64,000 nucleotides of DNA from a bacterium. GTDB taxonomy: Bacteria > Patescibacteriota > Minisyncoccia > Phycocordibacterales > Zambryskibacteraceae. The translations under genes and the position numbers were made by a program. Positions 19,334 to 41,759 of this stretch are shown one piece after another. The notes under the pieces are model-generated. The model did not search any database. It had not been told where the DNA came from and was given only the letters and a program-made list of their open reading frames with translations. The first letter of the stretch is position 1, and every line of letters begins with the position of its first letter. The stretch is from positions 1-64,000 of the forward strand of contig JAUSGI010000008.1 in the NCBI GenBank assembly GCA_030649135.1, read 5' to 3'.

Positions 19334-20149
19334 ATGAATATAGTAAAAAAGTTGTTGATATTGGACTACATTCTAGCTCTAGGGGTGGTTATTTGGTTGT
19401 CTCTATCAAACATCACCAGTTCTGTTGTCATCGATCTCTATGGGGTACTTTTTCTAGGATTAATTCCTATGTTAGGTGGTATCACGGGACTTATAATTGC
19501 AAAGCAATGGGGTGCCTTCAGAAGTGCTGTAGGAAGAGCAATTATCTTCCTGTCTCTGGGCTTAATCTCTTGGGGCTTAGGAACGTACATATTCTCCGGC
19601 GTATACAATTTTCTACTACAAGTGGAAGTACCTTATCCTTCTCTGGCTGATGTCGGCTATATATTGAGTTTGCCTCTTTGGGTCATTGGTATAATCCAAC
19701 TTTCCCGTGCCACGGGGGCAAAATACGGCCTGCGATCTTTTAATGGTAAGCTGGTATTTCTCACTATACCAGTCATTGTAATCCTGCTTTCATATTATCT
19801 GTTAGTTGTGGTTGCTCGCGGAGGACATATTGATTTATCGAATAGCGGTATTCTGAAGATCTTCTTCGATCTTGCGTATCCGGTAAGCGATGTCATCATT
19901 CTGACACTTGCCACGTTAATTTATGGATTATCGTTTAATTATTTTGGAGGGGTCTACAAGAAGGCTGTTTACTTTATGCTTGCCGGATTTCTCATTATGT
20001 ACTGCGCGGATTTCCTATTCTCCTATACGACGACTCTTGGGACTTGGCGTCCGGCGAATTGGGTAGACTTATTATTTACTACAGCCGTGTTTATTTTATC
20101 TATGGGCGTTGTGATGTTTGATCAAAGAAAGGTGTCAAGCGCCAATTAA
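19334..20149 (+). CDS. polytopic membrane protein (putative sensor module)
   Basis: ~7 hydrophobic helices; no catalytic domain; lies upstream of a soluble histidine kinase. Confidence 0.55.
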   Translation: MNIVKKLLILDYILALGVVIWLSLSNITSSVVIDLYGVLFLGLIPMLGGITGLIIAKQWGAFRSAVGRAIIFLSLGLISWGLGTYIFSGVYNFLLQVEVPYPSLADVGYILSLPLWVIGIIQLSRATGAKYGLRSFNGKLVFLTIPVIVILLSYYLLVVVARGGHIDLSNSGILKIFFDLAYPVSDVIILTLATLIYGLSFNYFGGVYKKAVYFMLAGFLIMYCADFLFSYTTTLGTWRPANWVDLLFTTAVFILSMGVVMFDQRKVSSAN

Positions 20150-20442: not shown

Positions 20443-21273
20443 ATGGCGGACAGTGACATGAATAACCAGATTTCTAGCGAGGAATATAAAAAAGTTACAG
20501 AGGAACTGTACAAACAAAATCTTGAGGTAGTCCGATTGTATAAACAGGTCGAGAACTTGAATAGCGAACTCGAGATTGCTAATGAGGGGCAGGCAAATTT
20601 AATACACATCATTAACCACCAAATCAAAGGCTATTTAGCTAAGGCGAGAAACATTTTCTCCGAATTGCTCTCCGAACCGTCCTACGGTCCGGTTACTCCC
20701 ACCGCTAAACCCATGCTCGAGGAAGGATTCAACTCGCTCACCGAAGGAGTCACCTTTGTCACGGACTTTTTAACCGCCTCCAATATTGAGAAAGGAACTT
20801 TCGTCTATGATATGCAATCTGTGGACTTTAAAACAATAGTAACCGAAGTGGCCGAGAAACAAAAAGAGACGGCAAAGGAAAAAGGTCTCTCCTTCGAGCT
20901 CACGGCTATTCCCGGCGACTATAACATGAAAGGGGACGCGAGTCAGCTTGGTCAGGCAGTAAAAAACTTGATTGACAATTCCGTCCGCTATACACCGAAG
21001 GGTGGTCTGGTCGTTAATCTGTCACACCCCAACGACAAAATTCTTCTCGCGGTTAATGATACCGGTGTGGGCATCTCGGAGGAACTCAAACCCAGGCTCT
21101 TCACCAAAGGCGGCAGGGACAAGGATTCGCTCAAGGTCAATGTAAACTCGACCGGCTTCGGCTTGTCCTTCGTGAAGGGTGTGGTAGAAGCGCACAAGGG
21201 TCGCGTCTGGGCCGAATCCGCCGGTCCCGACAAAGGCTCTACTTTCTACATGGAGTTACCGGTTAATTCTTGA
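20443..21273 (+). CDS. soluble histidine kinase core (coiled coil, HisKA, HATPase_c)
   Basis: H-box IINHQIKGYLAKARN; N-box NLIDNSVRYT; G-boxes DTGVGI and GFGLSFVKG. Confidence 0.75.
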   Translation: MADSDMNNQISSEEYKKVTEELYKQNLEVVRLYKQVENLNSELEIANEGQANLIHIINHQIKGYLAKARNIFSELLSEPSYGPVTPTAKPMLEEGFNSLTEGVTFVTDFLTASNIEKGTFVYDMQSVDFKTIVTEVAEKQKETAKEKGLSFELTAIPGDYNMKGDASQLGQAVKNLIDNSVRYTPKGGLVVNLSHPNDKILLAVNDTGVGISEELKPRLFTKGGRDKDSLKVNVNSTGFGLSFVKGVVEAHKGRVWAESAGPDKGSTFYMELPVNS

Positions 21274-21288
21274 TACTATAGGGTTAAT

Positions 21289-22242
21289 ATGGCCGATAAG
21301 AAAATACTGCTTTCGGGGGTTAAACCTACCGGCAGGCCACACATAGGGAATTATTTTGGCGCCATGAAGCGATTTGTTGAGATGCAAGGTTCATACGAGA
21401 GCTATGTATTTATTGCAGACTCGCATGCTTTGACCAGCCTCCAAAATAAACAAGAACTTAAGAGCAATACTCTTGGGGTGTTACTAGATTACATGGCTAT
21501 TGGTCTTAATCCGCAAAAGGTTACTCTTTACAAGCAGTCTGATGTGCCTCAAGTGACGGAACTAACTTGGATTTTCAATTGTCTTACTACAGTGCCGTAT
21601 TTAATGCGAGCACATGCATATAAGGATGCAGTCGCTAATGGCAAAGAACCAACAGTTGGTCTTTTCGATTACCCTTTACTTATGGCGGCTGATATTCTCA
21701 TCCAGGGTGCCGATGTGGTACCGGTGGGGCAGGACCAGAAACAACATGTCGAGATTGCCCGCGACACAGCTCAAAAGTTTAATAATGTATTTGGGGGAAC
21801 TTTTAAATTACCGGAGTCAATAATTCTCGAAAGCGTTGCTACTGTACCAGGAACAGACGGCAGAAAGATGTCTAAAAGCTATGGCAATACTATTCCAATT
21901 TTTGCCACTGACGAAGAAATTGAGAAAGCAGTCATGAGTATTGTCACGGACTCCTCTTCTGGTATACCGGAGAATGTCTATGCCATCCATACTCTCCTGC
22001 GTGAGAAGGGAGATTTGGATAAACTTTATGCCGAAAAGAAAGGTCAATACAAAGAACTGAAAGAAGCGCTTATTGAAGACTTGAAGAAGTTTATCGGACC
22101 CATGCGTGAAAAGAGACAGGCGCTTGAAAAAGATAAAGGGGTCGTACTCGAAGTGCTTAAAGCGGGCGGCCAAGTAGCTCGGGAAAGGGCAGAAAAGAAA
22201 ATGGAAGAGGTGAGAGAAAAAATAGGCCTAAAAATATCATGA
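21289..22242 (+). CDS. trpS: tryptophanyl-tRNA synthetase
   Basis: GVKPTGRPHIGNY (HIGH), KMSKS. Confidence 0.9.
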   Translation: MADKKILLSGVKPTGRPHIGNYFGAMKRFVEMQGSYESYVFIADSHALTSLQNKQELKSNTLGVLLDYMAIGLNPQKVTLYKQSDVPQVTELTWIFNCLTTVPYLMRAHAYKDAVANGKEPTVGLFDYPLLMAADILIQGADVVPVGQDQKQHVEIARDTAQKFNNVFGGTFKLPESIILESVATVPGTDGRKMSKSYGNTIPIFATDEEIEKAVMSIVTDSSSGIPENVYAIHTLLREKGDLDKLYAEKKGQYKELKEALIEDLKKFIGPMREKRQALEKDKGVVLEVLKAGGQVARERAEKKMEEVREKIGLKIS

Positions 22243-30160: not shown

Positions 30161-31117
30161 ATGAAAAACATTCTCGTTACAGGCGGGGCCGGCTACATCG
30201 GCAGTGTCACGGTCAGAGGATTGCTTAATAGCGGGCACAAAGTGACTGTTCTGGACAATCTCTATAAGGGGAGGAGAGAACTGATAGATAAAAGGGCTGT
30301 TTTCCACAAACTGGATGTTATCAATTTGCCGGCTTTAGAGAGGTTTTCCAGAGGCAAGAAATTTGATGTGATTGTACATTTTGCCGCCTTGAAAGATGCC
30401 GGTGAATCTATGGTCAGGTCGGATTGGTATCAGGACAACATCACAGGGGTGATGAATCTCCTTAAAATTGCTCCGAAATTGAAGGTCAAGCAATTTGTCT
30501 TCTCCTCTTCAGCGGCTGTTTACGGTGAGCCGGGAACGAGGGTTATTGACGAAGACCATTCATGCCATCCTACCAACTTTTATGGCTATACCAAACTTGC
30601 GGGAGAGGAACTCTTGGAATGGGCAAGGAAACTAAAGGGAATAGAATATGTGGCGCTTAGATATTTTAATGTTGCAGGTGACGGGGGGCTCAATTATATA
30701 GACCCCAAGGCCCGAAATATCTTTAATGTTATTGGCGAGGTCCTGTGTGGCAGGAAAAAGGTGTTGGAAATATTCGGAGGTGACTATCATACTAAGGACG
30801 GGACGGGTATCCGAGACTACATTCATGTTACCGATTTGGCCAAGGCTCACGAAAAAGCTTTAAAGGTGAAAGGTTCCCATTTTATCAATCTTGGTAGTGA
30901 AAAGGGGTATTCGGTGCTGGAAATTGTCAAAGAATTTGAGAGAGTTTCCGGTGAAAAAGTGCCGTATAAGATAATCAAGAGACGGGCGGGAGATCCCGCC
31001 TCTCTAATTGCCACTTCCGCTAAGGCAAAGTCGATTCTCAAGTGGGTTCCTAAACTAGGGCTTAGAGAAATGGTTGAAAGTACCTGGCGGGCTTATAGAA
31101 AAACCAGCGAAGTGTAA
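30161..31117 (+). CDS. galE: UDP-glucose 4-epimerase (NAD-dependent epimerase)
   Basis: ILVTGGAGYIGS; YxxxK region. Confidence 0.85.
   Translation: MKNILVTGGAGYIGSVTVRGLLNSGHKVTVLDNLYKGRRELIDKRAVFHKLDVINLPALERFSRGKKFDVIVHFAALKDAGESMVRSDWYQDNITGVMNLLKIAPKLKVKQFVFSSSAAVYGEPGTRVIDEDHSCHPTNFYGYTKLAGEELLEWARKLKGIEYVALRYFNVAGDGGLNYIDPKARNIFNVIGEVLCGRKKVLEIFGGDYHTKDGTGIRDYIHVTDLAKAHEKALKVKGSHFINLGSEKGYSVLEIVKEFERVSGEKVPYKIIKRRAGDPASLIATSAKAKSILKWVPKLGLREMVESTWRAYRKTSEV
31029..31097 (+). repeat. direct repeat copy 1 (functional galE 3' end)
   Basis: 69 bp; 65/69 identical to 31763-31831. Confidence 0.8.
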
Positions 31118-31175
31118 TAATCACAATCTTCATACGGCTAGATTTAGTTGACAATACTGGTAGTATGAGTACTAT

Positions 31176-31406
31176 ATGAACCTCAAGCTAACCCGGCATT
31201 TCCAGGACATGATACAGCATCGGGGAATAGAGCTGGATGATGTCAAAAGGGCACTTAGCTCATCGGACGAAACAGTAGATGCCCATGATGGGGCTTTAAA
31301 GGTAACAAAACAAATTGGGGATAAAAAAATCGAGGTGATATACTGTAGGGAGACATTCAAAGATAGAAAAGACGAATACTTAATAATCACGGCATATTAT
31401 TTGTAA
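31176..31406 (+). CDS. DUF4258-like small protein (putative toxin-like component)
   Basis: 76 aa; promoter-like TTGACA at 31146. Confidence 0.5.
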   Translation: MNLKLTRHFQDMIQHRGIELDDVKRALSSSDETVDAHDGALKVTKQIGDKKIEVIYCRETFKDRKDEYLIITAYYL

Positions 31407-31409
31407 AAT

Positions 31410-31643
31410 ATGAAAATAGATTACGACAAAGTAGCAGATGCAATTTATTTCACTGTTAAAAGTGATAAAGTTGCTAAGTCTATAAAAGTAGACGACAGGC
31501 TTGTCGTCGACCTTTCCGCGTCGGGTGATATCGTCGGAATGGAACTATTAGATGCATCTTCAAAACAAGGGCAAGAACTTGAAAACAATATAAAGCAAGG
31601 AGTTCCCATAAATATTATCTCTGCCACACCGGTAACAGCTTAA
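31410..31643 (+). CDS. DUF2283-like small protein
   Basis: MKIDYDKVADAIYFTV (YDxxxDAxY motif); 77 aa. Confidence 0.55.
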   Translation: MKIDYDKVADAIYFTVKSDKVAKSIKVDDRLVVDLSASGDIVGMELLDASSKQGQELENNIKQGVPINIISATPVTA

Positions 31644-31741: not shown

Positions 31742-31760
31742 CCATTCGTGCGAATTAGCC
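31742..31760. repeat. palindromic motif CCATTCGTGCGAATTAGCC (copy 2)
   Basis: see 24943-24961; directly abuts the galE 3' duplicate. Confidence 0.45.
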
Positions 31761-31762
31761 AT

Positions 31763-31831
31763 AGTCGATTCTCAAGTGGGTTCCTAAACTAGGGCTTAAA
31801 GAAATGGTTGAGAGCACATGGCGGGCTTATA
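31763..31831 (+). repeat. direct repeat copy 2: displaced alternative galE 3' end (encodes ...SILKWVPKLGLKEMVESTWRAYKSVR*)
   Basis: 94% identical to 31029-31097, then diverges. Confidence 0.8.
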
Positions 31832-35000: not shown

Positions 35001-35985
35001 CGCGTTATATACAGATACAAACTACACCGCTGAAAATCTAGTGGTCTTAAACGGATTCAAGTCGGATGGCGATATCGCGATTGACTCCGCTTCAGACTTA
35101 GCCGGAGTGTCCACAGCGCAGAACACAGCTACTGCTGGAATGGCCGGTGTGTTAAAAAATACACAAACAGCTCCTGACGATGACGGAAATGCGACAATGG
35201 ACTCTGACACAACGGAAGTGGTTATCACAGACCCGGATCAACCTGTTGACATTACAATTGAAAGTGGCACAGAAAATCCGACAATTGATGTTAGTGCATT
35301 TATTACCGATGGAATAGGAATATTGCCGGAGATTACAATCAATTCCGACGTAGCGGATGTTATAATTCCGGATAGTACGACAGTGACTGGCCCGACTGAT
35401 TGGGATGGGGTCATTAGCGTACCAACGGCTACCACTACTACTGGCACTGCCCCAGCTGGGTTTAGCGTTGGCGGTACTGTTATCTCGGTCGGTTCGTCTC
35501 AAGGAACATTAACCTTCAGTAATCCCGTTACGATATTACTTGCAGGTGTTACTGGAACAGTTGGCTACAAACCAGCTGGTTCAGATACTTGGCAGACGAT
35601 AACCAATGTTTGTGCCGACCCGTATGCAACTCCAGGCAACCCTCCAGCCGGTAGCGAATGCGCAATATCAAATGGTACTGATACTAAAATTGTCACCTTC
35701 CACTTCACGGAATTTGGAGAATTAGATTCTATTCCAGCTACGCCTATCCCTCCTCGTTCAAGCAGGGCAGGAGACTTTTCTCCGGCCGCGCGCAGAGCAA
35801 TCTTGGCAGCGACACCCAATGCATCAGCAGTATCGGTTGTAGGTCAAGTCCTTGGAGCCTTCACTGAAGATGAAAGACAGGCTCAAATTGTGTCCGTCCG
35901 CGGGCAACTTATAGAGAAGATAAATCAACTAATCGGTCTCTTGCGGGTGCAACTTGCAGCGGCCATAACAGCAGGCGATCAATAA
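32053..35985 (+). CDS. 1310-aa secreted surface protein: signal peptide, lamin-tail domain, long right-handed beta-helix (PbH1/NosD-like), three FIVAR-like repeats, C-terminal conserved module
   Basis: signal peptide; LTD VFTEI...GEWIEVQN...GGWILND; GAGTYAENV, NNWWGNVSGPFN; YTxxSWxxYQxxVxxANxxTDQxTQxEVD repeats. Confidence 0.85.
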   Translation: MTKLMGVILSLVLMAGSVQAATLDDIVFTEIMATPNAVADADGEWIEVQNNSLSPVDIGGWILNDGSDHTISGPYSIPAGEKAVICRDNDSSVNGGVKCHYQSVMVLTDIGKTLQLLEGVTTINEATYGDTAGNSGKSVYIPSGSFESVSQFGNGDYGTPAGNGASIGTHSYASIQIAIDAAISGNTIDVGAGTYAENVSLDGKTNLTIQGAGEATIIEPASGIGFAIKNSSGITIKNLKIHTTGTNAHGVWVAGTPNGGATAVTGLTVQDDTIVVDGYSSGIYAEQVDTTPHSGWLITGNTITVNPGAGVTGDGMDLHDVSGSEVSYNTIILNTPTDSTNVLWTSELSNLSSLIFSNNTISGSSGSEIAILTDFLDALADTSITTVTVSGNTFSNWGSRALRVGTANGTGAVTEIAVNSNIFQMAADTTEVIGGTAASSATGSGNIFNVSGTAKIQKAVDGAFSGDTINVAAGTYDEQVVIDGEDLILQGVGDTTIIRPSAPATLTQTYTFPAGTFWSGTTASSIILVENASAVTIKDLKVDGINVTSLPLTGSPDRLVGVLLGVSSGTIDNATVTSIKTAGYANRTYGIEVSGADSGTYSVEVKSSHITDWARNGIVADGTNLTANINHNTLVGPGTISGQVANGILFIGGAAGNTTSNTISGMHYNADPVSRSAGILIYGATTAGILIDQNDISDTDDGINLSASSHNATVSNNNLHNNLEVGIQLENGTANNAITGNTIVNNTMAGIRFGGAGDPVPAEADTPPGAGNVANDKNTITGNANGIVNYDTGLGQIFDAANNWWGNVSGPFNTTSNPLGTGDSISDNVNFVPWYSTSGMTTLVSANMIAYNTALDAVSQTDYTTASWSAYQAIVTANTRTDQNTQTEVDDATAAITTAQLDLIAIADLTDYNTALDAVVESDYTTESWATYQAIVDANVVTDQHTQAEVDTAIDNITIAQDDLVATLDVAKTTAHEALTTARALYTDTNYTAENLVVLNGFKSDGDIAIDSASDLAGVSTAQNTATAGMAGVLKNTQTAPDDDGNATMDSDTTEVVITDPDQPVDITIESGTENPTIDVSAFITDGIGILPEITINSDVADVIIPDSTTVTGPTDWDGVISVPTATTTTGTAPAGFSVGGTVISVGSSQGTLTFSNPVTILLAGVTGTVGYKPAGSDTWQTITNVCADPYATPGNPPAGSECAISNGTDTKIVTFHFTEFGELDSIPATPIPPRSSRAGDFSPAARRAILAATPNASAVSVVGQVLGAFTEDERQAQIVSVRGQLIEKINQLIGLLRVQLAAAITAGDQ

Positions 35986-35998
35986 CTCCCAAACGCTC

Positions 35999-36514
35999 CT
36001 ACGCGTGGTTGTATAACAGTTTAAGTTTCTCAAGCCCTCGGTGTGCTTGCACGGCCATAGCATTCTTTGATTGTCCGGTGATAAGAGCCATTTCTTTGAG
36101 TGACAGATTTTGCACGTACCGCATGCGTATCACTTTCTGGTATTTTGTCGGAAGATGTTGAATTAATAGGAGTGCCGCTTTCCCGTCTAGGGTGTTGAAA
36201 AGAAGTTCGGAATGTTCAACGCTCGGCTCGTAGCCTTTTTCAAGTAGGACATCAAGGGAAGTGGTTTTGTGCTTCCGATATTCATCAATGATAAGATTAT
36301 TGAGGACGTGGTAGAGAAAAGCTTTCATGACATCAATCTTCCCTCCTTTCACGAGGTAGGCCCATGTTTTCATGAAGGTGTCTTGTACTAAGTCTTCGCC
36401 CCTAGCATGGTCGTGTATCTTGAAAAAGGCATGTGCATTGAGTCCCTTTTCGTAGTCATTGTGTGCTAGGGTTAATACTGTCTGTTGGCGCACCTTCTGT
36501 TTGGGGGTCATCAT
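35999..36514 (-). CDS. ECF-type sigma-70 family sigma factor
   Basis: region 2 (DLVQDTFMKTW) and region 4 (LSLKEMALITGQSKNAMAVQAHRGLEKL). Confidence 0.8.
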   Translation of the reverse strand: MMTPKQKVRQQTVLTLAHNDYEKGLNAHAFFKIHDHARGEDLVQDTFMKTWAYLVKGGKIDVMKAFLYHVLNNLIIDEYRKHKTTSLDVLLEKGYEPSVEHSELLFNTLDGKAALLLIQHLPTKYQKVIRMRYVQNLSLKEMALITGQSKNAMAVQAHRGLEKLKLLYNHA

Positions 36515-36768
36515 ATATTAAGCATTAAGCCGAATCTCGGCGTGTCTTATTACAAAATTATTACAATCTGACTGCGACAAAGAGAGAAATAACCATATCT
36601 ATAGGCCTTAAATACCGTTAGGTCTGACCCTTTTTCTCTACACAGATATTACAGTAAGTATAACATACTTGGGATATCAGTGCGTTATGTAATAAATAGA
36701 GCTTTCTAGCGGCCTTATTGGTATAGAAACGACTTAATCCCACCGTTGACATTTCTGGATTAAATATC

Positions 36769-37152
36769 ATGCAAACACCCAAAACAATACTAATCATAGA
36801 AGATGAGAAAAGTCTTCGCGATGCCATCGTGGACATTCTACGTCTCAAAAACTTCTTGTCTCTTGAGGCAAAAAATGGTAGAGAGGGGGTGGAGCTCGCG
36901 CTCTCCAAACACCCTGACCTCATTTTGCTTGACCTTATTATGCCGGAGATGGACGGTATAATTGCGCTCAAAAATATTCGAGAAGATGCTTGGGGGAAAA
37001 AAGTTCCCATTATTATTCTAACGAATTTGAGTGCGACCAATGAACAGTTTGGGGATGATAAGGCGACGCTTAAGGCAACGCATTATTTAATTAAATCGGA
37101 TTGGAAGCTGCATGATATCGCAAAGAAGATCGAAGAAATATTGGAAACTTAA
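36769..37152 (+). CDS. stand-alone response-regulator receiver (CheY-like)
   Basis: ILIIEDEKSLRD...LILLDLIMPEMDG. Confidence 0.85.
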   Translation: MQTPKTILIIEDEKSLRDAIVDILRLKNFLSLEAKNGREGVELALSKHPDLILLDLIMPEMDGIIALKNIREDAWGKKVPIIILTNLSATNEQFGDDKATLKATHYLIKSDWKLHDIAKKIEEILET

Positions 37153-37160
37153 AATACTCC

Positions 37161-39182
37161 ATGAATAAAAAAACTATCATCTCTGCGTCCGATGATATAA
37201 TCCTAAATCTCAAAGTTTCGGCTAAGGAAAAAGAAATTGTCAGGCGCAAACTTGCTGTAACAGCAGAGAGGCTTGCTGCGACGGCAGTGAAACTTGCCAT
37301 AACAGCTAAGGAAAGAGAAAGTGTGAGGATTAAGCTAGCGGTGACTGCCGAAGAAAAGGAACATGTCAGGCTTAAGTTAGTGGTGACCGCAGAGAAGCTT
37401 GCTGTAATCGCAGAGAAGCTTGCTGTGACTGCCGAGGAAAAGGAAAGTGTCAGGCGCAAACTTGCCGTGACGGCAGCCAAACTTGCAGTAACGGCAGCTA
37501 AACTCTCCGCAACTACTGAGGAAAAAGAAAGTGTGAGACGCAAGAAGCTAGTCGCGACAGCAGCTAAGCTTGCTGTAACAGCAGAGAAGCTTGCTGCGAC
37601 CGCCAAAGAAAAGGAGAGTGTCAGGCGCAAACTTGCTGTGACCGCAGCCAAACTTGCTGTGACAGCAGAGAAGCTTGCCGCGACGGCCAAGGAAAAAGAA
37701 ATTGTTAGGCGTAAACTCGTCGTGACGGCAGAAAAGCTAGTCGTGACGGCAGCCAAACTCGCCGTGACAGCAGAGAAGCTTGCCGCGACGGCAGCCAAAC
37801 TCGCAGTAACTGCTAAGGAAAAAGAAATTGTTAGGCGTAAACTTGCAGCGACTGCTAAGGAAAAAGAAAGTGTCAGGCGCAAGCTGGTAGTGACTGCTAA
37901 GGAAAAAGAAAGTGTCAGGCGTAAGCTGGTGGTGACAGCCAAGGAAAAGGAGAGCGTCAGGCGTAAGCTGGTGGTGACAGCAGCTAAACTTGCTGTAACT
38001 GCAGCGAAACTCAAAAAGTCGTACGAAACACTCGAGAAGAAAGTGCTTGAACGAACCAAGAGTCTAGAAATGTCCAGAGCAAAGGAAGAGGCGGTTTTGC
38101 TCTCGATTGGTGACGGACTTCTTGTGACTAATGAAAAAGGAAATGTTATTATTATAAATAAGACAGCTGAAAAACTACTCGGTATTAAGAGTAAAGAAGC
38201 TATGGGAAAGGTCTTTTCCGAAGCCGTTCTTTTGGTAGATGAAAAAGGGGTGCCTATTCCGTCAGAGAAACATCCCGTAAGGATGGCTCTAGTAAGCGGC
38301 ATTACTACTGCCACTACTATTGTAGGTTCCACTTACTATAATGTGCGGAAAGATAAAACGAAATTTCCTGTGGCAATTATGGTCACGCCCGTTATTCTTG
38401 ACGGGAAGGTGATTGGAACAATTGAAGTTTTTCGAGATATTACCGCCGAGCGGGAAATTGATAAAGCCAAAACCGAATTTGTTTCCCTTGCTTCACACCA
38501 GCTCCGCACCCCGCTTTCTACGGTCAATTGGTACGCGGAAATGCTTCTGGCCGGAGATGTGGGGGAGTTGAATGAAAAACAAAAGAAATATTTAGATGAG
38601 GTATATCGCAGTAATCAGCGAATGGTTGAATTGGTAAACGCCCTTTTGGATGTCGCTTCTCTTGAAATTGGTACCTTTGTGGTTGAGCCGGAACCAACCG
38701 ATATAATCGAACTAGCGCAAAGTGTCATAGACGAACAAAAACCGCAGATTGAGGCCAAAAAAATAGTATTTTCTTTTTCATTCGGGAAAAATATTTCACT
38801 TATGCAGGCCGACCCCAAACTCCTGCGAATGATAGTGCAAAATATCTTGTCAAATGCGGTAAAATATACTCATGAAGGCGGGAAAATCGATATGTCGATT
38901 TCCTTAGCGGACAAAAATAATATTCTTCTGAAAGTCGATGATACGGGCTACGGCATACCCCAAAATCAGCAAGATAAAATATTTACCAAGCTGTTTCGGG
39001 CCGATAATGTCAGAGATAAAGACACGGACGGCACGGGCCTCGGGCTCTATATTGTAAAGTCAGTCGTTGAAAATTCTGGCGGGAAAATCTGGTTTAAGTC
39101 CGTGGGCGGGGAAGAAAATAAAGGCACCACCTTTTATGTATCGCTGCCTTTGGATGGGGCGAAAAAGCCGGCTAATATATAA
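37161..39182 (+). CDS. sensor histidine kinase: N-terminal repetitive coiled coil, PAS, HisKA, HATPase_c
   Basis: heptad KEKESVRRKLAVTAAKLAVTAEKLAAT repeats; PAS; H-box SLASHQLRTPL; HATPase N/G boxes. Confidence 0.85.
   Translation: MNKKTIISASDDIILNLKVSAKEKEIVRRKLAVTAERLAATAVKLAITAKERESVRIKLAVTAEEKEHVRLKLVVTAEKLAVIAEKLAVTAEEKESVRRKLAVTAAKLAVTAAKLSATTEEKESVRRKKLVATAAKLAVTAEKLAATAKEKESVRRKLAVTAAKLAVTAEKLAATAKEKEIVRRKLVVTAEKLVVTAAKLAVTAEKLAATAAKLAVTAKEKEIVRRKLAATAKEKESVRRKLVVTAKEKESVRRKLVVTAKEKESVRRKLVVTAAKLAVTAAKLKKSYETLEKKVLERTKSLEMSRAKEEAVLLSIGDGLLVTNEKGNVIIINKTAEKLLGIKSKEAMGKVFSEAVLLVDEKGVPIPSEKHPVRMALVSGITTATTIVGSTYYNVRKDKTKFPVAIMVTPVILDGKVIGTIEVFRDITAEREIDKAKTEFVSLASHQLRTPLSTVNWYAEMLLAGDVGELNEKQKKYLDEVYRSNQRMVELVNALLDVASLEIGTFVVEPEPTDIIELAQSVIDEQKPQIEAKKIVFSFSFGKNISLMQADPKLLRMIVQNILSNAVKYTHEGGKIDMSISLADKNNILLKVDDTGYGIPQNQQDKIFTKLFRADNVRDKDTDGTGLGLYIVKSVVENSGGKIWFKSVGGEENKGTTFYVSLPLDGAKKPANI
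37200..38010 (+). repeat. in-frame tandem repeats, 21-bp periodicity with 42- and 84-bp higher-order units
   Basis: e.g. three 42-bp units GCTAAGGAAAAAGAAAGTGTCAGGCGCAAGCTGGTAGTGACT at 37854-37979. Confidence 0.85.
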
Positions 39183-39190
39183 TTAATCAT

Positions 39191-39661
39191 ATGTCCAACA
39201 AATCTGTGAAAAAGCAAACCATTCTGGTAATAGAGGATGAGAAACCTCTGCTTGAGGCCATTAATGACAAACTTGAAAAAAGCGGTTTCGGTGTGATTGC
39301 GGCCCGTAGTGTGGAGCAAGCGTTCAACGCGAATATCGCGAAAAACGGCCTAGGTGTCATAAATGTTCGAAGCATCGAGCAAGCGCTTAATTATCTTGAA
39401 AGTTTGGAACGAGTAGACGCAATTTGGCTGGACCATCACCTTTTGGGCAAAGAAGATGGTCTTGATTTTGTAAAAAAATTTAAAGCAAATGGCGGGCGCT
39501 GGAGTAAAATTCCTGTCTTCGTAGTTTCGAATGCCGCCAGTCCCAAAACTGTCAAGTCTTATGTAGATTCCGGTGTGAGCAAGTACTATGTCAAATCCGA
39601 CCATCGACTCGATGAAATTATCAAAGACATTCAATCTTTTTTAGACCATTCGGCGAAATAA
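39191..39661 (+). CDS. stand-alone response-regulator receiver with an internal partial duplication
   Basis: ILVIEDEKPLLEAI...; duplicated ARSVEQAFN / VRSIEQALN segment. Confidence 0.75.
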   Translation: MSNKSVKKQTILVIEDEKPLLEAINDKLEKSGFGVIAARSVEQAFNANIAKNGLGVINVRSIEQALNYLESLERVDAIWLDHHLLGKEDGLDFVKKFKANGGRWSKIPVFVVSNAASPKTVKSYVDSGVSKYYVKSDHRLDEIIKDIQSFLDHSAK

Positions 39662-39763
39662 ACCGGTTGTAATATTTCCGTCTCTGGAACGGCATTTATG
39701 GCAAGGGTAGGTAGTAAACTCAACTATTCGCTCAAGTCATTAATTAAATAACTAGTAAAACAT

Positions 39764-41692
39764 ATGGAAAAATCTAATAAGGGTTCAATTATACTAACCG
39801 TGCTGACCGTCTCCCTTGTAATCGGTTTTCTGGGGTCAATGGTCGCGTATGCATTCGTAAGTCCAGCGACAGTCAATCTTGGAACAGCGGCTGATTTTGC
39901 GATTCTCTCGAAAGCGGGAATCACTAACGTTCCCACCTCTGTCATTACTGGGAATATCGGAACAAGTTTAGATGAAGCCAGTACTGATACTGCTTTCGCA
40001 GGTATCACGTGTGGCCAAGTGACGGGGTCAATATACTCGTTCAACTCGACAGGTCCTCTCCCTTGTGTGTTAGCTGACTCTGTATTGGCTACAACTGTAG
40101 TAAGTACGGCCGTAGGCGATATGGAAACTGCAATAACCGATGCCAACAGCCGAACACCTGATGATATCGACCTTGCATTCAATGCGGGCGTAGGATGTGC
40201 TCTTGGCACTTGTGACCTCGCGGGGCTTACTCTCGCTCCCGGCGTCTATACATTCACAGCTCCTGGCAATGTCATCATCACAAACGATGTTACCCTCTCG
40301 GGTAGCCCAAGTGATATTTGGATATTCATCATCCCGGGGACTCTTGATATCAGCTCTGCCAAGAAGGTTCTTCTAACCGGCGGCGCAGTATCTGACAATG
40401 TCTTCTGGTCAGTTGCTGGCGCGACTCAACTTCAAACATCTTCTACGTTCGAGGGAAATATCCTTGAAGCAGGAACGCCTCTTGCGATGCTCTCCGGTGC
40501 TACACTACACGGAAGAGCACTGTCGAAATTCGCAGTTACGCTCGATGCCAATACCGTTACGACTCCTTCCGCCACACCACCTCCGACAACCGGTCCGGTT
40601 TTCGTGGAAGAGGGGGTTGCGAACGGTACTCTTGATTTAGGAGAACTATTCTTCAACACCGTTCAATCAGCAATCGATGACGCAGGTACTCTTTCCGGCG
40701 ACACCATTCACGTTACCGCAGGAACTTACAACGAAAGTATCGTAGTTAACAAATCATTAACGCTCAATTCCGTGGGAGCAGTCATAAACGGCTCGGCGGG
40801 ACAAAATGGTGTTTCTATCGGGGCAAGTGATGTTACGGTTAACGGCTTCGAAGTTACTTCTAGCGGTCTTAGTGGAGTCTACGGTATCGCTGAAACAACG
40901 CCTGTCAGTAACACAGTTATTACCCACAACGTCGTTCACGGCTTTCCCGCATTGGGTATTGCGTTGGCGGCTGGTTCTGTCAATGCAGAAGTTACAACTA
41001 ACGAAGTCTACGATGTGTACGGAGGCATCTATCTTTCTACCGGCGCAATCGGTGCACTTGTAGACGGTAACGATGTTCACGACTTAGTAAGCGGTGCTGG
41101 TCCTGACCAGGGAGCCGCGGTCGCGTTTGAAGGAAACAACACAGATGTTTCGGTAACCAACAACACTCTCACAAATAACGCTTTCGGTCTCTATGTGTGG
41201 TCTGCGTTCGGTTCTGACTTTACCGGCACTGTAGTTGAGCATAACAAATTTGTAGGCAACACAGACGGTGTGGAAAATACCAATACTGGTATTATCAACG
41301 CTTCTCCGAACTGGTGGGGAGCTGTCACAGGTCCGACTCATGCCACCAACCCTAGCGGTCTAGGCGATGCGGTGAGCGACAATGTTACTTTTGACCCATG
41401 GTATGTGGACGAGGCTATGACCACGCTGTCAAATGCCCCGGCTCCAGCTCCCGCTCCAGCACCAGAACCAGAACCAGAATCAAGGGGTTCAAGGTCCGGT
41501 GACTCACGAAGAGTTTCTGCTCAAACTGCCAATGTAGTGGTGGGCGAAATCCTCGGCATCTTTACCGAAGCTGAAAGACTGGCACAGATTGCGACTGTTA
41601 AGGTTCAACTGTCCTCTCTTATCCGCCAACTGATCGGTTTATTACAGGCCCAATTGATTACGGCGCTTCAGACAGAGATTCGGAACTATTAA
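39764..41692 (+). CDS. 642-aa surface protein: DUF3494 (ice-binding-like) N-domain, Thr/Pro linker, PbH1 beta-helix, C-terminal conserved module
   Basis: LGTAADFAILSKAGITNVPTSVITGNIG; GTYNESIV, SPNWWGAVTGP; C-term GIFTEAERLAQI...QLIGLL. Confidence 0.8.
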   Translation: MEKSNKGSIILTVLTVSLVIGFLGSMVAYAFVSPATVNLGTAADFAILSKAGITNVPTSVITGNIGTSLDEASTDTAFAGITCGQVTGSIYSFNSTGPLPCVLADSVLATTVVSTAVGDMETAITDANSRTPDDIDLAFNAGVGCALGTCDLAGLTLAPGVYTFTAPGNVIITNDVTLSGSPSDIWIFIIPGTLDISSAKKVLLTGGAVSDNVFWSVAGATQLQTSSTFEGNILEAGTPLAMLSGATLHGRALSKFAVTLDANTVTTPSATPPPTTGPVFVEEGVANGTLDLGELFFNTVQSAIDDAGTLSGDTIHVTAGTYNESIVVNKSLTLNSVGAVINGSAGQNGVSIGASDVTVNGFEVTSSGLSGVYGIAETTPVSNTVITHNVVHGFPALGIALAAGSVNAEVTTNEVYDVYGGIYLSTGAIGALVDGNDVHDLVSGAGPDQGAAVAFEGNNTDVSVTNNTLTNNAFGLYVWSAFGSDFTGTVVEHNKFVGNTDGVENTNTGIINASPNWWGAVTGPTHATNPSGLGDAVSDNVTFDPWYVDEAMTTLSNAPAPAPAPAPEPEPESRGSRSGDSRRVSAQTANVVVGEILGIFTEAERLAQIATVKVQLSSLIRQLIGLLQAQLITALQTEIRNY

Positions 41693-41723: not shown

Positions 41724-41759
41724 GAACCACCCCGGCATCACGCCGGGGCGGTTCTTTAT
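41724..41759 (+). terminator. rho-independent terminator
   Basis: GAACCACCCCGGC-atca-CGCCGGGGCGGTTC then TTTAT. Confidence 0.65.

Follow-up and report, generated by a model that had tools for sequence, protein, structure and literature searches.

An ECF-type sigma factor of Paceibacteria beside a receiver-kinase-receiver operon: a common promoter-like motif and possible feedback through bare receivers

Genes that lie divergent from an extracytoplasmic function (ECF) sigma factor, or are co-transcribed with it, and share its promoter are typically its regulators. Here, we describe an ECF-type sigma gene that is divergent from an operon of two stand-alone receivers (REC1 and REC2) and a PAS-domain histidine kinase, on the first 64,000 nucleotides (nt) of contig JAUSGI010000008.1 (assembly GCA_030649135.1; this whole stretch is called the window below) of an uncultivated Paceibacteria bacterium (Parcubacteria, candidate phyla radiation or CPR). 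CPR bacteria, or Patescibacteria, have tiny genomes and few regulators, and to our knowledge almost nothing has been reported on the control of their cell surface, which is their interface with the host. Among better-characterized systems, the sigma factors X, M, W and V of Bacillus subtilis have regulons that concern the envelope and are held by membrane anti-sigma factors of the same operon, and PorX of Porphyromonas gingivalis carries a PglZ effector domain, with porX, porY and sigP unlinked. This PorX/PorY-SigP system (ECF228), in which a response regulator directly binds an ECF sigma, is like the locus studied here in having a sigma without an anti-sigma factor and a regulon (predicted, in our case) of secreted or surface proteins (PMC7826278), but here the receivers are bare (no PglZ domain was found by Pfam in the operon proteins) and are encoded beside the sigma.

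Nearest in logic is ECF15, where EcfG, NepR and PhyR are accompanied by the accessory single-domain receivers SdrG, MrrA and LovR and by PAS/LOV kinases (PMC8999054). Both systems would link an ECF sigma to cytoplasmic PAS-type kinases and stand-alone receivers through protein contact or phosphotransfer, whereas our locus differs by its HisKA kinase, its CPR lineage, its sigma group, its usual partner (a short PAS protein with a C-terminal coiled coil, PAS-CC) and the lack of PhyR and NepR. SigE-CseBC of Streptomyces (ECF39) and ECF234 likewise combine an ECF sigma lacking an anti-sigma factor with an adjacent two-component system, but their regulator binds DNA (PMC7826278, PMC8999054), and the receivers of the window have no DNA-binding domain. 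In these two reviews of non-canonical ECF regulation (PMC7826278, PMC8999054), neither bare receivers nor a PAS protein is listed as controlling any group, and a search of the literature on ECF sigmas in Parcubacteria, Patescibacteria and CPR returned nothing relevant.

Judged by sequence comparison, the window contains one locus of a Paceibacteria-wide ECF sigma system, and the REC1-kinase-REC2 operon is probably a dedicated member of this circuit, differing from its paralogues by the co-occurrence of its gene order, an insertion in REC2 and a promoter-like motif. Most likely, the sigma autoregulates and drives its partner gene(s) along with a surface-protein regulon clustered round its own gene. 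We further propose, at slightly less than an even chance, that the operon is part of this autoregulated surface-protein regulon and that, by protein contacts of its phosphorylated receivers, it probably acts back on the sigma. The system would then represent a variant form of two-component-linked ECF control, with a feedback mechanism that we infer. Its genes and their parts are as follows.

35999-36514, minus strand: ECF-type sigma, 171 amino acids (aa), from Pfam and NCBIfam
36769-39661, plus strand: REC1-kinase-REC2 operon, divergent from the sigma gene
36769-37152, plus strand: REC1, stand-alone receiver, 127 aa, Pfam Response_reg only
37161-39182, plus strand: PAS-HisKA-HATPase_c kinase, 673 aa, from Pfam
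37161-38045, plus strand: N-terminal heptad region of the kinase (aa 1-295), ~41 in-phase heptads, overlooked in the first-pass annotation
38091-39155, plus strand: kinase core, with PAS (aa 311-432), HisKA (aa 436-502) and HATPase_c (aa 551-665)
39191-39661, plus strand: REC2, stand-alone receiver, 156 aa, from Pfam (Response_reg) and an AlphaFold2 model
~39320-39382, plus strand: family-specific insertion of ~20 aa in REC2, from duplication of beta2 and the start of alpha2

The list of open reading frames (ORFs) bears out the set of four genes (sigma, REC1, PAS kinase, REC2) given by the first-pass annotation, together with its two 8-nt gaps, at 37153-37160 between REC1 and the kinase and at 39183-39190 between the kinase and REC2. 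Its remark that no recognisable anti-sigma gene stands by the sigma is likewise confirmed from the ORFs of both flanks, neither of which offers a candidate for the cognate anti-sigma gene typical of ECF sigmas. There is in fact no space for one, because the sigma stop codon is 13 nt from the stop codon of a convergent gene for a 1310-aa LTD/beta-helix surface protein, and the 254-nt spacer between sigma and REC1 holds unconserved ORFs of 20-28 aa and none longer. The same search of the flanks yielded no small NepR-like ORF, for which the annotation had suggested looking. The operon is identical in an independent assembly (Logan SRR13727527, L138 in our numbering of related loci), and the REC2 sequence recurs unchanged as a protein of an NCBI contig of 216,895 bp.

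By domain content and size, the sigma is of ECF (group 4) type: it matches Sigma70_r2 (29.5 bits, cut-off 24) and Sigma70_r4_2 (44.1 bits, cut-off 25.7) in Pfam, and the sigma70-ECF family TIGR02937 in NCBIfam (54.8 bits vs. a cut-off of 42.9). Its best NCBIfam match is to the Bacteroidota family PG0214/GFO_1088 (68 bits vs. a cut-off of 130), and the SigM subfamily, SigV and SigW are among its nearest named families, each below cut-off; this is a likeness to the Bacillus subtilis factors, but none of their membrane anti-sigma factors is present here. Annotators start the sigma of the same locus at the second Met, which gives 170 aa. More than 3100 homologues were found, of which the best 120 are 72-95% identical, and identity is 62-77% among 80 species genomes of the Genome Taxonomy Database (GTDB) and 62-82% over a set of more than 80 genomes, which seems unusually constrained for the fast-evolving Patescibacteria lineages that make up the named carriers (Zambryski-, Pace-, Kaiser-, Vogel-, Taylor- and Wolfebacteria, and Minisyncoccota). 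No conventional anti-sigma domain directly adjoins the orthologous sigma genes; a conventional anti-sigma factor in orthologous operons, which the first-pass annotation had named as a finding that would overturn its reading, was not encountered. A second ECF-type sigma gene lies within a few kb of the conserved one in three loci, each time adjoined by a gene for a DUF5667-domain protein (L005:12911-14594, L006:11795-13487 and L009:3334-4477; 382-385 aa in L005 and L006, 202 aa in L009).

We compared partner genes across 80 GTDB species genomes chosen for their sigma (tblastn and ORF mapping; 81 with the window) and, reciprocally, in metagenome contigs picked by REC2, 16 of which carried window-like loci with enough flank. 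In ~60 of the 80 genomes, the sigma has PAS-CC as its divergent neighbour, with a spacer that typically measures 130-290 nt; PAS-CC is a conserved protein of ~190 aa that matches PAS weakly and ends in a helix (coiled coil). Its family (3178 homologues) is comparable to that of the sigma in both size and conservation, and its AlphaFold2 model, although of low confidence (predicted local distance difference test, pLDDT, 60), shows a PAS core preceded by an N-cap helix and followed by a long helix, much like the short PAS/LOV proteins built of a PAS core and a J-alpha-like helix. By tblastn, PAS-CC was not found in the 64-kb window, nor was it present in the available flanks (≤8 kb each side) of the other window-type loci. 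The divergent REC1-kinase-REC2 arrangement occurs in 8 of the 81 genomes, window included, and the REC1, kinase core and REC2 of the other seven (L015, L021, L025, L044, L056, L058 and L073) are 68-86% identical to those of the window.

The operon is also linked to the sigma in other arrangements (6 loci). It is convergent with the sigma in L028, L088 and L090; L017 has REC1, kinase, a REC2 paralogue (REC2'), REC2 and PAS-CC on one strand; and a PAS-CC-like gene, kinase, REC2 and REC1 are either divergent from the sigma (L086) or co-directional with it (L031). A PAS-CC-like PAS domain is fused into a kinase in L045. In the loci picked by REC2, the sigma adjoins the operon in 13 of 16 cases (11 divergent from REC1 and two convergent downstream), with no adjacent sigma in the remaining three; one of the convergent loci, L114, also has PAS-CC, divergent from the sigma. 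PAS-CC and kinase/receiver genes thus stand in one operon or locus in L017, L031, L086 and L114, which makes their co-function plausible from gene order. Paralogous kinase-REC2'-REC1 modules, with a membrane or short-coil kinase and a REC2 without the insertion, never adjoin the sigma in the REC2-picked set. On the neighbour-joining tree of the sigma, kinase-type loci are scattered, and the tree is star-like, such that the frequency of partner swaps cannot be read from it.

A second line of evidence comes from a promoter-like motif, TGTAAT-N16-CGGC, which was noticed on both strands when divergent spacers were aligned by eye, and which resembles in shape the promoters of the Bacillus subtilis factors sigma-X, sigma-M and sigma-W (TGnAAC-N16-17-CGnC). 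A strict form of it (TGYAAY-N16-CGKC) has four matches in the window vs. 0.84 expected, three of them within the 3.2-kb locus, and 228 matches in 1.13 Mb across loci vs. ~15 expected when the chance rate of the window is extrapolated. The sites of the window, the ice-binding-like gene that follows one of them and further elements of the spacer between sigma and REC1 are:

36529-36554, minus strand: motif before the sigma gene, its -35-like hexamer starting 40 nt before the ATG
36560-36565, minus strand: second TGTAAT, 11 nt upstream of the -35-like hexamer, giving the direct repeat TGTAAT-N5-TGTAAT
36636-36665, minus strand: mid-spacer element, an extended -10 sigma70-like TGTTATACT (36665-36657) followed by TGTAAT-N5-TGTAGA
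36688-36713, plus strand: motif before REC1, 81 nt before the ATG
39668-39693, plus strand: TGTAAT-N16-CGGC between REC2 and the ice-binding-like gene
39764-41692, plus strand: secreted surface protein, 642 aa, Ice_binding (DUF3494) and right-handed beta-helix (Pfam, NCBIfam)
31113-31138, plus strand: fourth strict match, upstream of a DUF4258/DUF2283 pair at 31176-31643 (Pfam)

Counted over distinct upstream regions (≤220 nt), the strict form precedes 57 of 93 sigma genes, 42 of 66 PAS-CC genes, 19 of 23 REC1 genes and 22 of 37 ice-binding-like genes, and is confined to genes that open a transcription unit: for REC2 and the kinase, which are internal, it occurs in none of 36 and none of 40 regions. 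The motif moreover travels with the operon, being kept where there is no sigma nearby (L107 and L116) or where the operon does not share the spacer of the sigma (L114, L017, L088 and L090), and it is absent upstream of the paralogous kinase-REC2'-REC1 modules. The -35-like hexamer is 35 nt from the start codon of PAS-CC (interquartile range 35-36) and a median of 37 nt from that of the sigma (loci L011-L090), distances which imply that both mRNAs would be leaderless or nearly so; the predicted leaders of REC1 and of the ice-binding-like genes are roughly 45 nt. This common motif and the conserved adjacency together support the functional association of sigma and REC-kinase-REC operon that the first-pass annotation had supposed.

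Both receivers appear fit for phosphorylation. REC1 has the acidic pair D12/E13, the phospho-acceptor D55, T85 and K108, all at least 95% conserved in 22 orthologues, and its matches in a PDB sequence search are spread over many receiver families, as for a generic receiver. REC2, for which Pfam reports Response_reg and receiver-like families over the same stretch and no second domain, has D16/E17, the phospho-acceptor D81, S113 and K135. Neither receiver has lost any of these conserved phosphotransfer residues, and the H, N and G boxes of the kinase are likewise in place (the H-box, SHQLRTPL, lies within HisKA); phosphotransfer is therefore expected. The pairing of conserved Asp pockets with an H-box HisKA/HATPase kinase is that of a classical two-component system, from which the locus departs in that neither receiver (127 and 156 aa) is fused to a DNA-binding output. 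The lack of any output domain, already pointed out from the letters alone, agrees with the Pfam results. No Hpt domain was found by Pfam in the operon proteins, which leaves the locus without the Hpt/Spo0B-like phosphotransferase of a multi-step phosphorelay.

The internal partial duplication that had been noted in REC2 is real, with residues 32-47 (GFGVIAARSVEQAFNA, nt 39284-39331) repeated at 53-68 (GLGVINVRSIEQALNY, nt 39347-39394) at 10 of 16 identical residues and 28 of 48 identical nucleotides. The resulting ~20-aa insertion is found in 14 of 14 aligned REC2 orthologues and not in the paralogue REC2' (134-135 aa; L017 and L028), which indicates, from this distribution, that the repeat is ancient rather than a recent duplication or an assembly error. 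In the AlphaFold2 model (pLDDT 85.8), REC2 adopts a single ordinary receiver fold, where the insertion forms a short helix (41-45) and a low-confidence loop (46-58) between beta2 and alpha2; a fold search returned generic receivers and no informative relative. We rejected an assignment of the receivers to CheY, another outcome that the first-pass annotation had listed as fatal to its proposal, since CheY models score far under their cut-offs (47 bits vs. 200 for REC1, 21 bits vs. 189 for REC2), the PDB matches of REC1 are spread over many receiver families, and no chemotaxis gene was seen at the locus or among the window ORFs scanned with Pfam.

The kinase is cytoplasmic, as first annotated: no membrane segment was detected by Kyte-Doolittle analysis (maximum 19-residue mean of 1.55, with the peak inside the PAS domain). 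Its HisKA domain belongs to PF00512 (61.5 bits) and not to the HWE/HisKA_2 families, and among NCBIfam families its core most resembles WalK, PnpS and PhoR, without reaching any of their cut-offs; compared with WalK/PhoR-type kinases, however, the membrane sensor and HAMP region are replaced by a length-variable heptad coil, and no DNA-binding partner is encoded. The heptad units (KLAVTAE, KLAATAK, EKESVRR) run with a single +1 skip near residue 127, and a comparable extra residue (RRKK, RRHK or RRRK) is seen in several longer orthologues. They are encoded by tandem repeats of 21, 42 and 84 nt (37248-37981), which also create a spurious 413-aa ORF on the reverse strand (37091-38332). The array spans 65-295 aa among repeat-bearing orthologues, while the two most distant ones (L031 and L086) have short, non-repeat N-termini; the C-terminal 378 aa are 54-82% identical across all orthologues, and more distant paralogues have a membrane sensor and HAMP region in place of the coil. 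An RsiG-like motif for binding cyclic di-GMP (E-x3-S-x2-R-x3-Q-x3-D) was considered for the EKESVRRKL heptads and rejected by eye, as the Q and D positions do not fit. Elsewhere in the window, an ORF at 20443-21273 (276 aa) carries HATPase_c, is 30% identical to the kinase core and has no HisKA match; its neighbours, at 19334-20149 (no Pfam match) and 21289-22242 (a tRNA synthetase), are not response regulators, and it may be an orphan or degenerate kinase.

In the mechanism that we propose, the sigma would read the TGTAAT-N16-CGGC motif and, by doing so, would activate its own gene as well as the kinase operon and, as a small regulon, genes for secreted, cell-surface proteins. The soluble kinase would sense a cytoplasmic cue through its PAS domain, autophosphorylate at the H-box histidine and pass the phosphate to D55 of REC1 and D81 of REC2. 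Having no output domain, the receivers would have to act by protein contact: most likely, one would set the activity of the sigma, either directly or via a PAS-CC-type partner encoded elsewhere, and thereby close a feedback loop, with the other as a phosphate sink or second branch. REC2, with its family-specific insertion, would be the better candidate for the receiver acting on the sigma, and the length-variable heptad coil is probably an oligomerisation or scaffold stalk. We link sigma and operon because their adjacency recurs in several orientations, the motif is common to both and it travels with the operon; feedback on the sigma is favoured because the operon occupies the regulator slot and is co-operonic with PAS-CC in several lineages, and because direct contact of a response regulator with an ECF sigma has a precedent in PorX-SigP. 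It is tempting to go further and see here an undescribed class of ECF regulator, mostly PAS-CC, that is joined or replaced by phosphorylated bare receivers in about a fifth of genomes, with the beta2-alpha2 insertion of REC2 as contact element and the soluble kinase, on its heptad stalk of variable length, as their phosphate source, although we regard this extended version as rather doubtful. If it holds, phosphorylated bare receiver domains would control the sigma, and no anti-sigma domain would take part.

Several observations weigh against feedback. The data do not require it: the regulon might just include the operon among its outputs. When 58 PAS-CC-type and 22 kinase-type sigma sequences were compared, no residue significantly tracked the partner type (best uncorrected p = 0.001 over ~170 columns), which argues against receivers replacing PAS-CC at a different sigma surface; an unchanged surface would be expected either if one common direct binder is encoded elsewhere or if direct binding does not occur. 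Finally, the direct repeat before the sigma gene resembles the binding sites of OmpR-type regulators, and in two related loci the sigma is paired with such a regulator.

This repeat is specific to sigma genes: the consensus of 57 sigma promoters reads tGTAATa.tt.TGTAATAaaa, and the promoters of PAS-CC, REC1 and the surface genes have a single TGTAAT. The mid-spacer element is also oriented towards the sigma gene, so that a repeat pair with 11-bp spacing occurs twice in the spacer, and the succession of TGnTAtACT and CTGTAAT-N5-TGTAAY recurs in many orthologous spacers. TGTAAT-N5-TGTAAT could be a doubled -35 element or an OmpR-type regulator box. In L075 and L081, the gene divergent from the orthologous sigma encodes an OmpR-family DNA-binding regulator, accompanied by a PAS kinase (a cytoplasmic one following the regulator in L075), and in the L081 spacer TGTTAA-N5-TGTTAA repeats replace TGTAAT. 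The two regulator genes are:

L075:7171-7839, minus strand: OmpR-type regulator, divergent from the sigma
L081:843-1511, minus strand: OmpR-type regulator, divergent from the sigma

Their gene content points to transcriptional two-component control of this sigma in some lineages, and both loci look like the ECF39/ECF234 type; L005 and L006 also carry OmpR-type pairs, ~1.4 kb downstream of the sigma gene. A DNA-binding response regulator in orthologous loci was a further result that, according to the first-pass annotation, would speak against its proposal: one does stand beside the sigma in L075 and L081, but these loci are not orthologues of the operon.

The strongest competitor to feedback, which we still consider on the unlikely side, is that the operon merely belongs to the sigma regulon, its receivers having other, unrelated targets (proteins of the cell envelope, of division or of pili, for example), while PAS-CC or another factor encoded elsewhere sets sigma activity. 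A motif common to both would then mean co-regulation, the indifference of the sigma sequence to its adjacent partner would be expected, and the module would be accessory, as suggested by the 633 homologues of REC2, about five times fewer than for PAS-CC, and vs. more than 3100 each for PAS-CC and the sigma. This view sits less well with the repeated placement of the operon in the divergent slot of PAS-CC or within a PAS-CC operon, given that divergent, promoter-sharing genes of ECF loci are generally regulators. Alternatively, PAS-CC encoded elsewhere could be the anti-sigma factor, captured by a phosphorylated receiver that thereby frees the sigma. Such a strict partner switch would make the idea of the first-pass annotation concrete, as PhyR/NepR logic built from unrelated parts, and would suit the near-universal divergent PAS-CC, which is conserved about like the sigma and has the same motif, is co-operonic with the kinase and receivers in L017, L031 and L086 (and at the same locus in L114), and as a common direct binder would leave the sigma surface unchanged. 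We nevertheless find it improbable: PAS-CC is missing from the window and from the flanks of the other window-type loci, its model is of low confidence, the receivers carry no sigma-mimicking domain, and we know of no PAS domain that serves as an anti-sigma module. The PhyR/NepR system itself was rejected, with no positive evidence for the PhyR/NepR-like switching first suggested, because Pfam finds no sigma-like domain of the PhyR type in REC1 or REC2, there is no NepR-like ORF, and the kinase is not of the HWE/HisKA_2 type.

A conventional DNA-binding two-component pair was rejected for the window as well, neither receiver having a DNA-binding domain. Less probable again is that an OmpR-type regulator encoded elsewhere binds TGTAAT-N5-TGTAAT and controls sigma transcription, leaving the receivers as phosphate competitors only. 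The 11-bp-spaced repeats of the sigma promoter and the regulators of L075, L081, L005 and L006 speak for it, but no DNA-binding response regulator was found among the window ORFs submitted to Pfam, and the PAS-CC, REC1 and ice-binding promoters have just one TGTAAT, with an invariant N16 before CGGC, as would suit the -35/-10 pair of a sigma rather than a regulator box. As for an operon that landed beside the sigma by chance, without any functional relation, its being a minority arrangement and the scatter of kinase-type loci on the sigma tree would agree; we give this next to no credence, and it is strongly disfavoured by the recurrence of several orientations and by a common motif that travels with the operon. 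Feedback through phosphorylated receivers remains our preferred reading. Should receivers or the PAS protein indeed bind the sigma, a mechanism would be added to the catalogue of ECF regulation, which would raise the interest of the locus. It already yields a phylum-level sigma regulon for which a promoter is predicted and which includes surface and peptidoglycan-binding proteins and a sortase-like protein, and two interchangeable non-canonical partner modules for one sigma, from a parts list short enough for rebuilding in E. coli or in vitro.

Apart from sigma and partner genes, those 3' of the motif mostly encode secreted or membrane proteins, including a family with PG_binding_1 and fn3-like domains (21 cases), ice-binding-like, Ig-like and small membrane proteins and one sortase-like protein. 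In the window, the protein at 39764-41692 has a hydrophobic N-terminal segment, and its gene, which is followed by a terminator-like hairpin (41730-41748), is predicted to belong to the sigma regulon; ice-binding-like genes come after PAS-CC or REC2 in many related loci. A scan of the locus for sigma70 promoters and terminators gave matches no more frequent than in shuffled sequence. The first-pass annotation had proposed to look for ECF-type promoters upstream of 32053 and 39764, and had envisaged a phosphorelay over the flanking surface proteins. The motif is present before 39764 and absent upstream of 32053, and so the latter idea is half right: a sigma-type motif precedes 39764, which makes the sigma itself the likely driver of that gene.

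The fourth strict match (31113-31138) may be a chance occurrence. The gene at 30161-31117, which we take to encode a GalE-like epimerase, has the 75 nt of its 3' end (31023-31097) copied downstream of the DUF4258/DUF2283 pair (31757-31831; 68 of 75 nt identical). From this arrangement, the pair looks like a small toxin-antitoxin-like cassette inserted with target duplication, and the fourth match is at its left edge. The two large beta-helix surface proteins of the window have in common a C-terminal helical tail of ~50 aa (35800-35985 and 41530-41692), which comes after a linker rich in Pro/Ala or Arg/Ser. Inspected by eye, the two tails showed no evident LPXTG motif; they follow the pattern VVGxxLGxFTExERxAQI...QLIGLLxxQL and may represent a lineage-specific anchoring or sorting tail.

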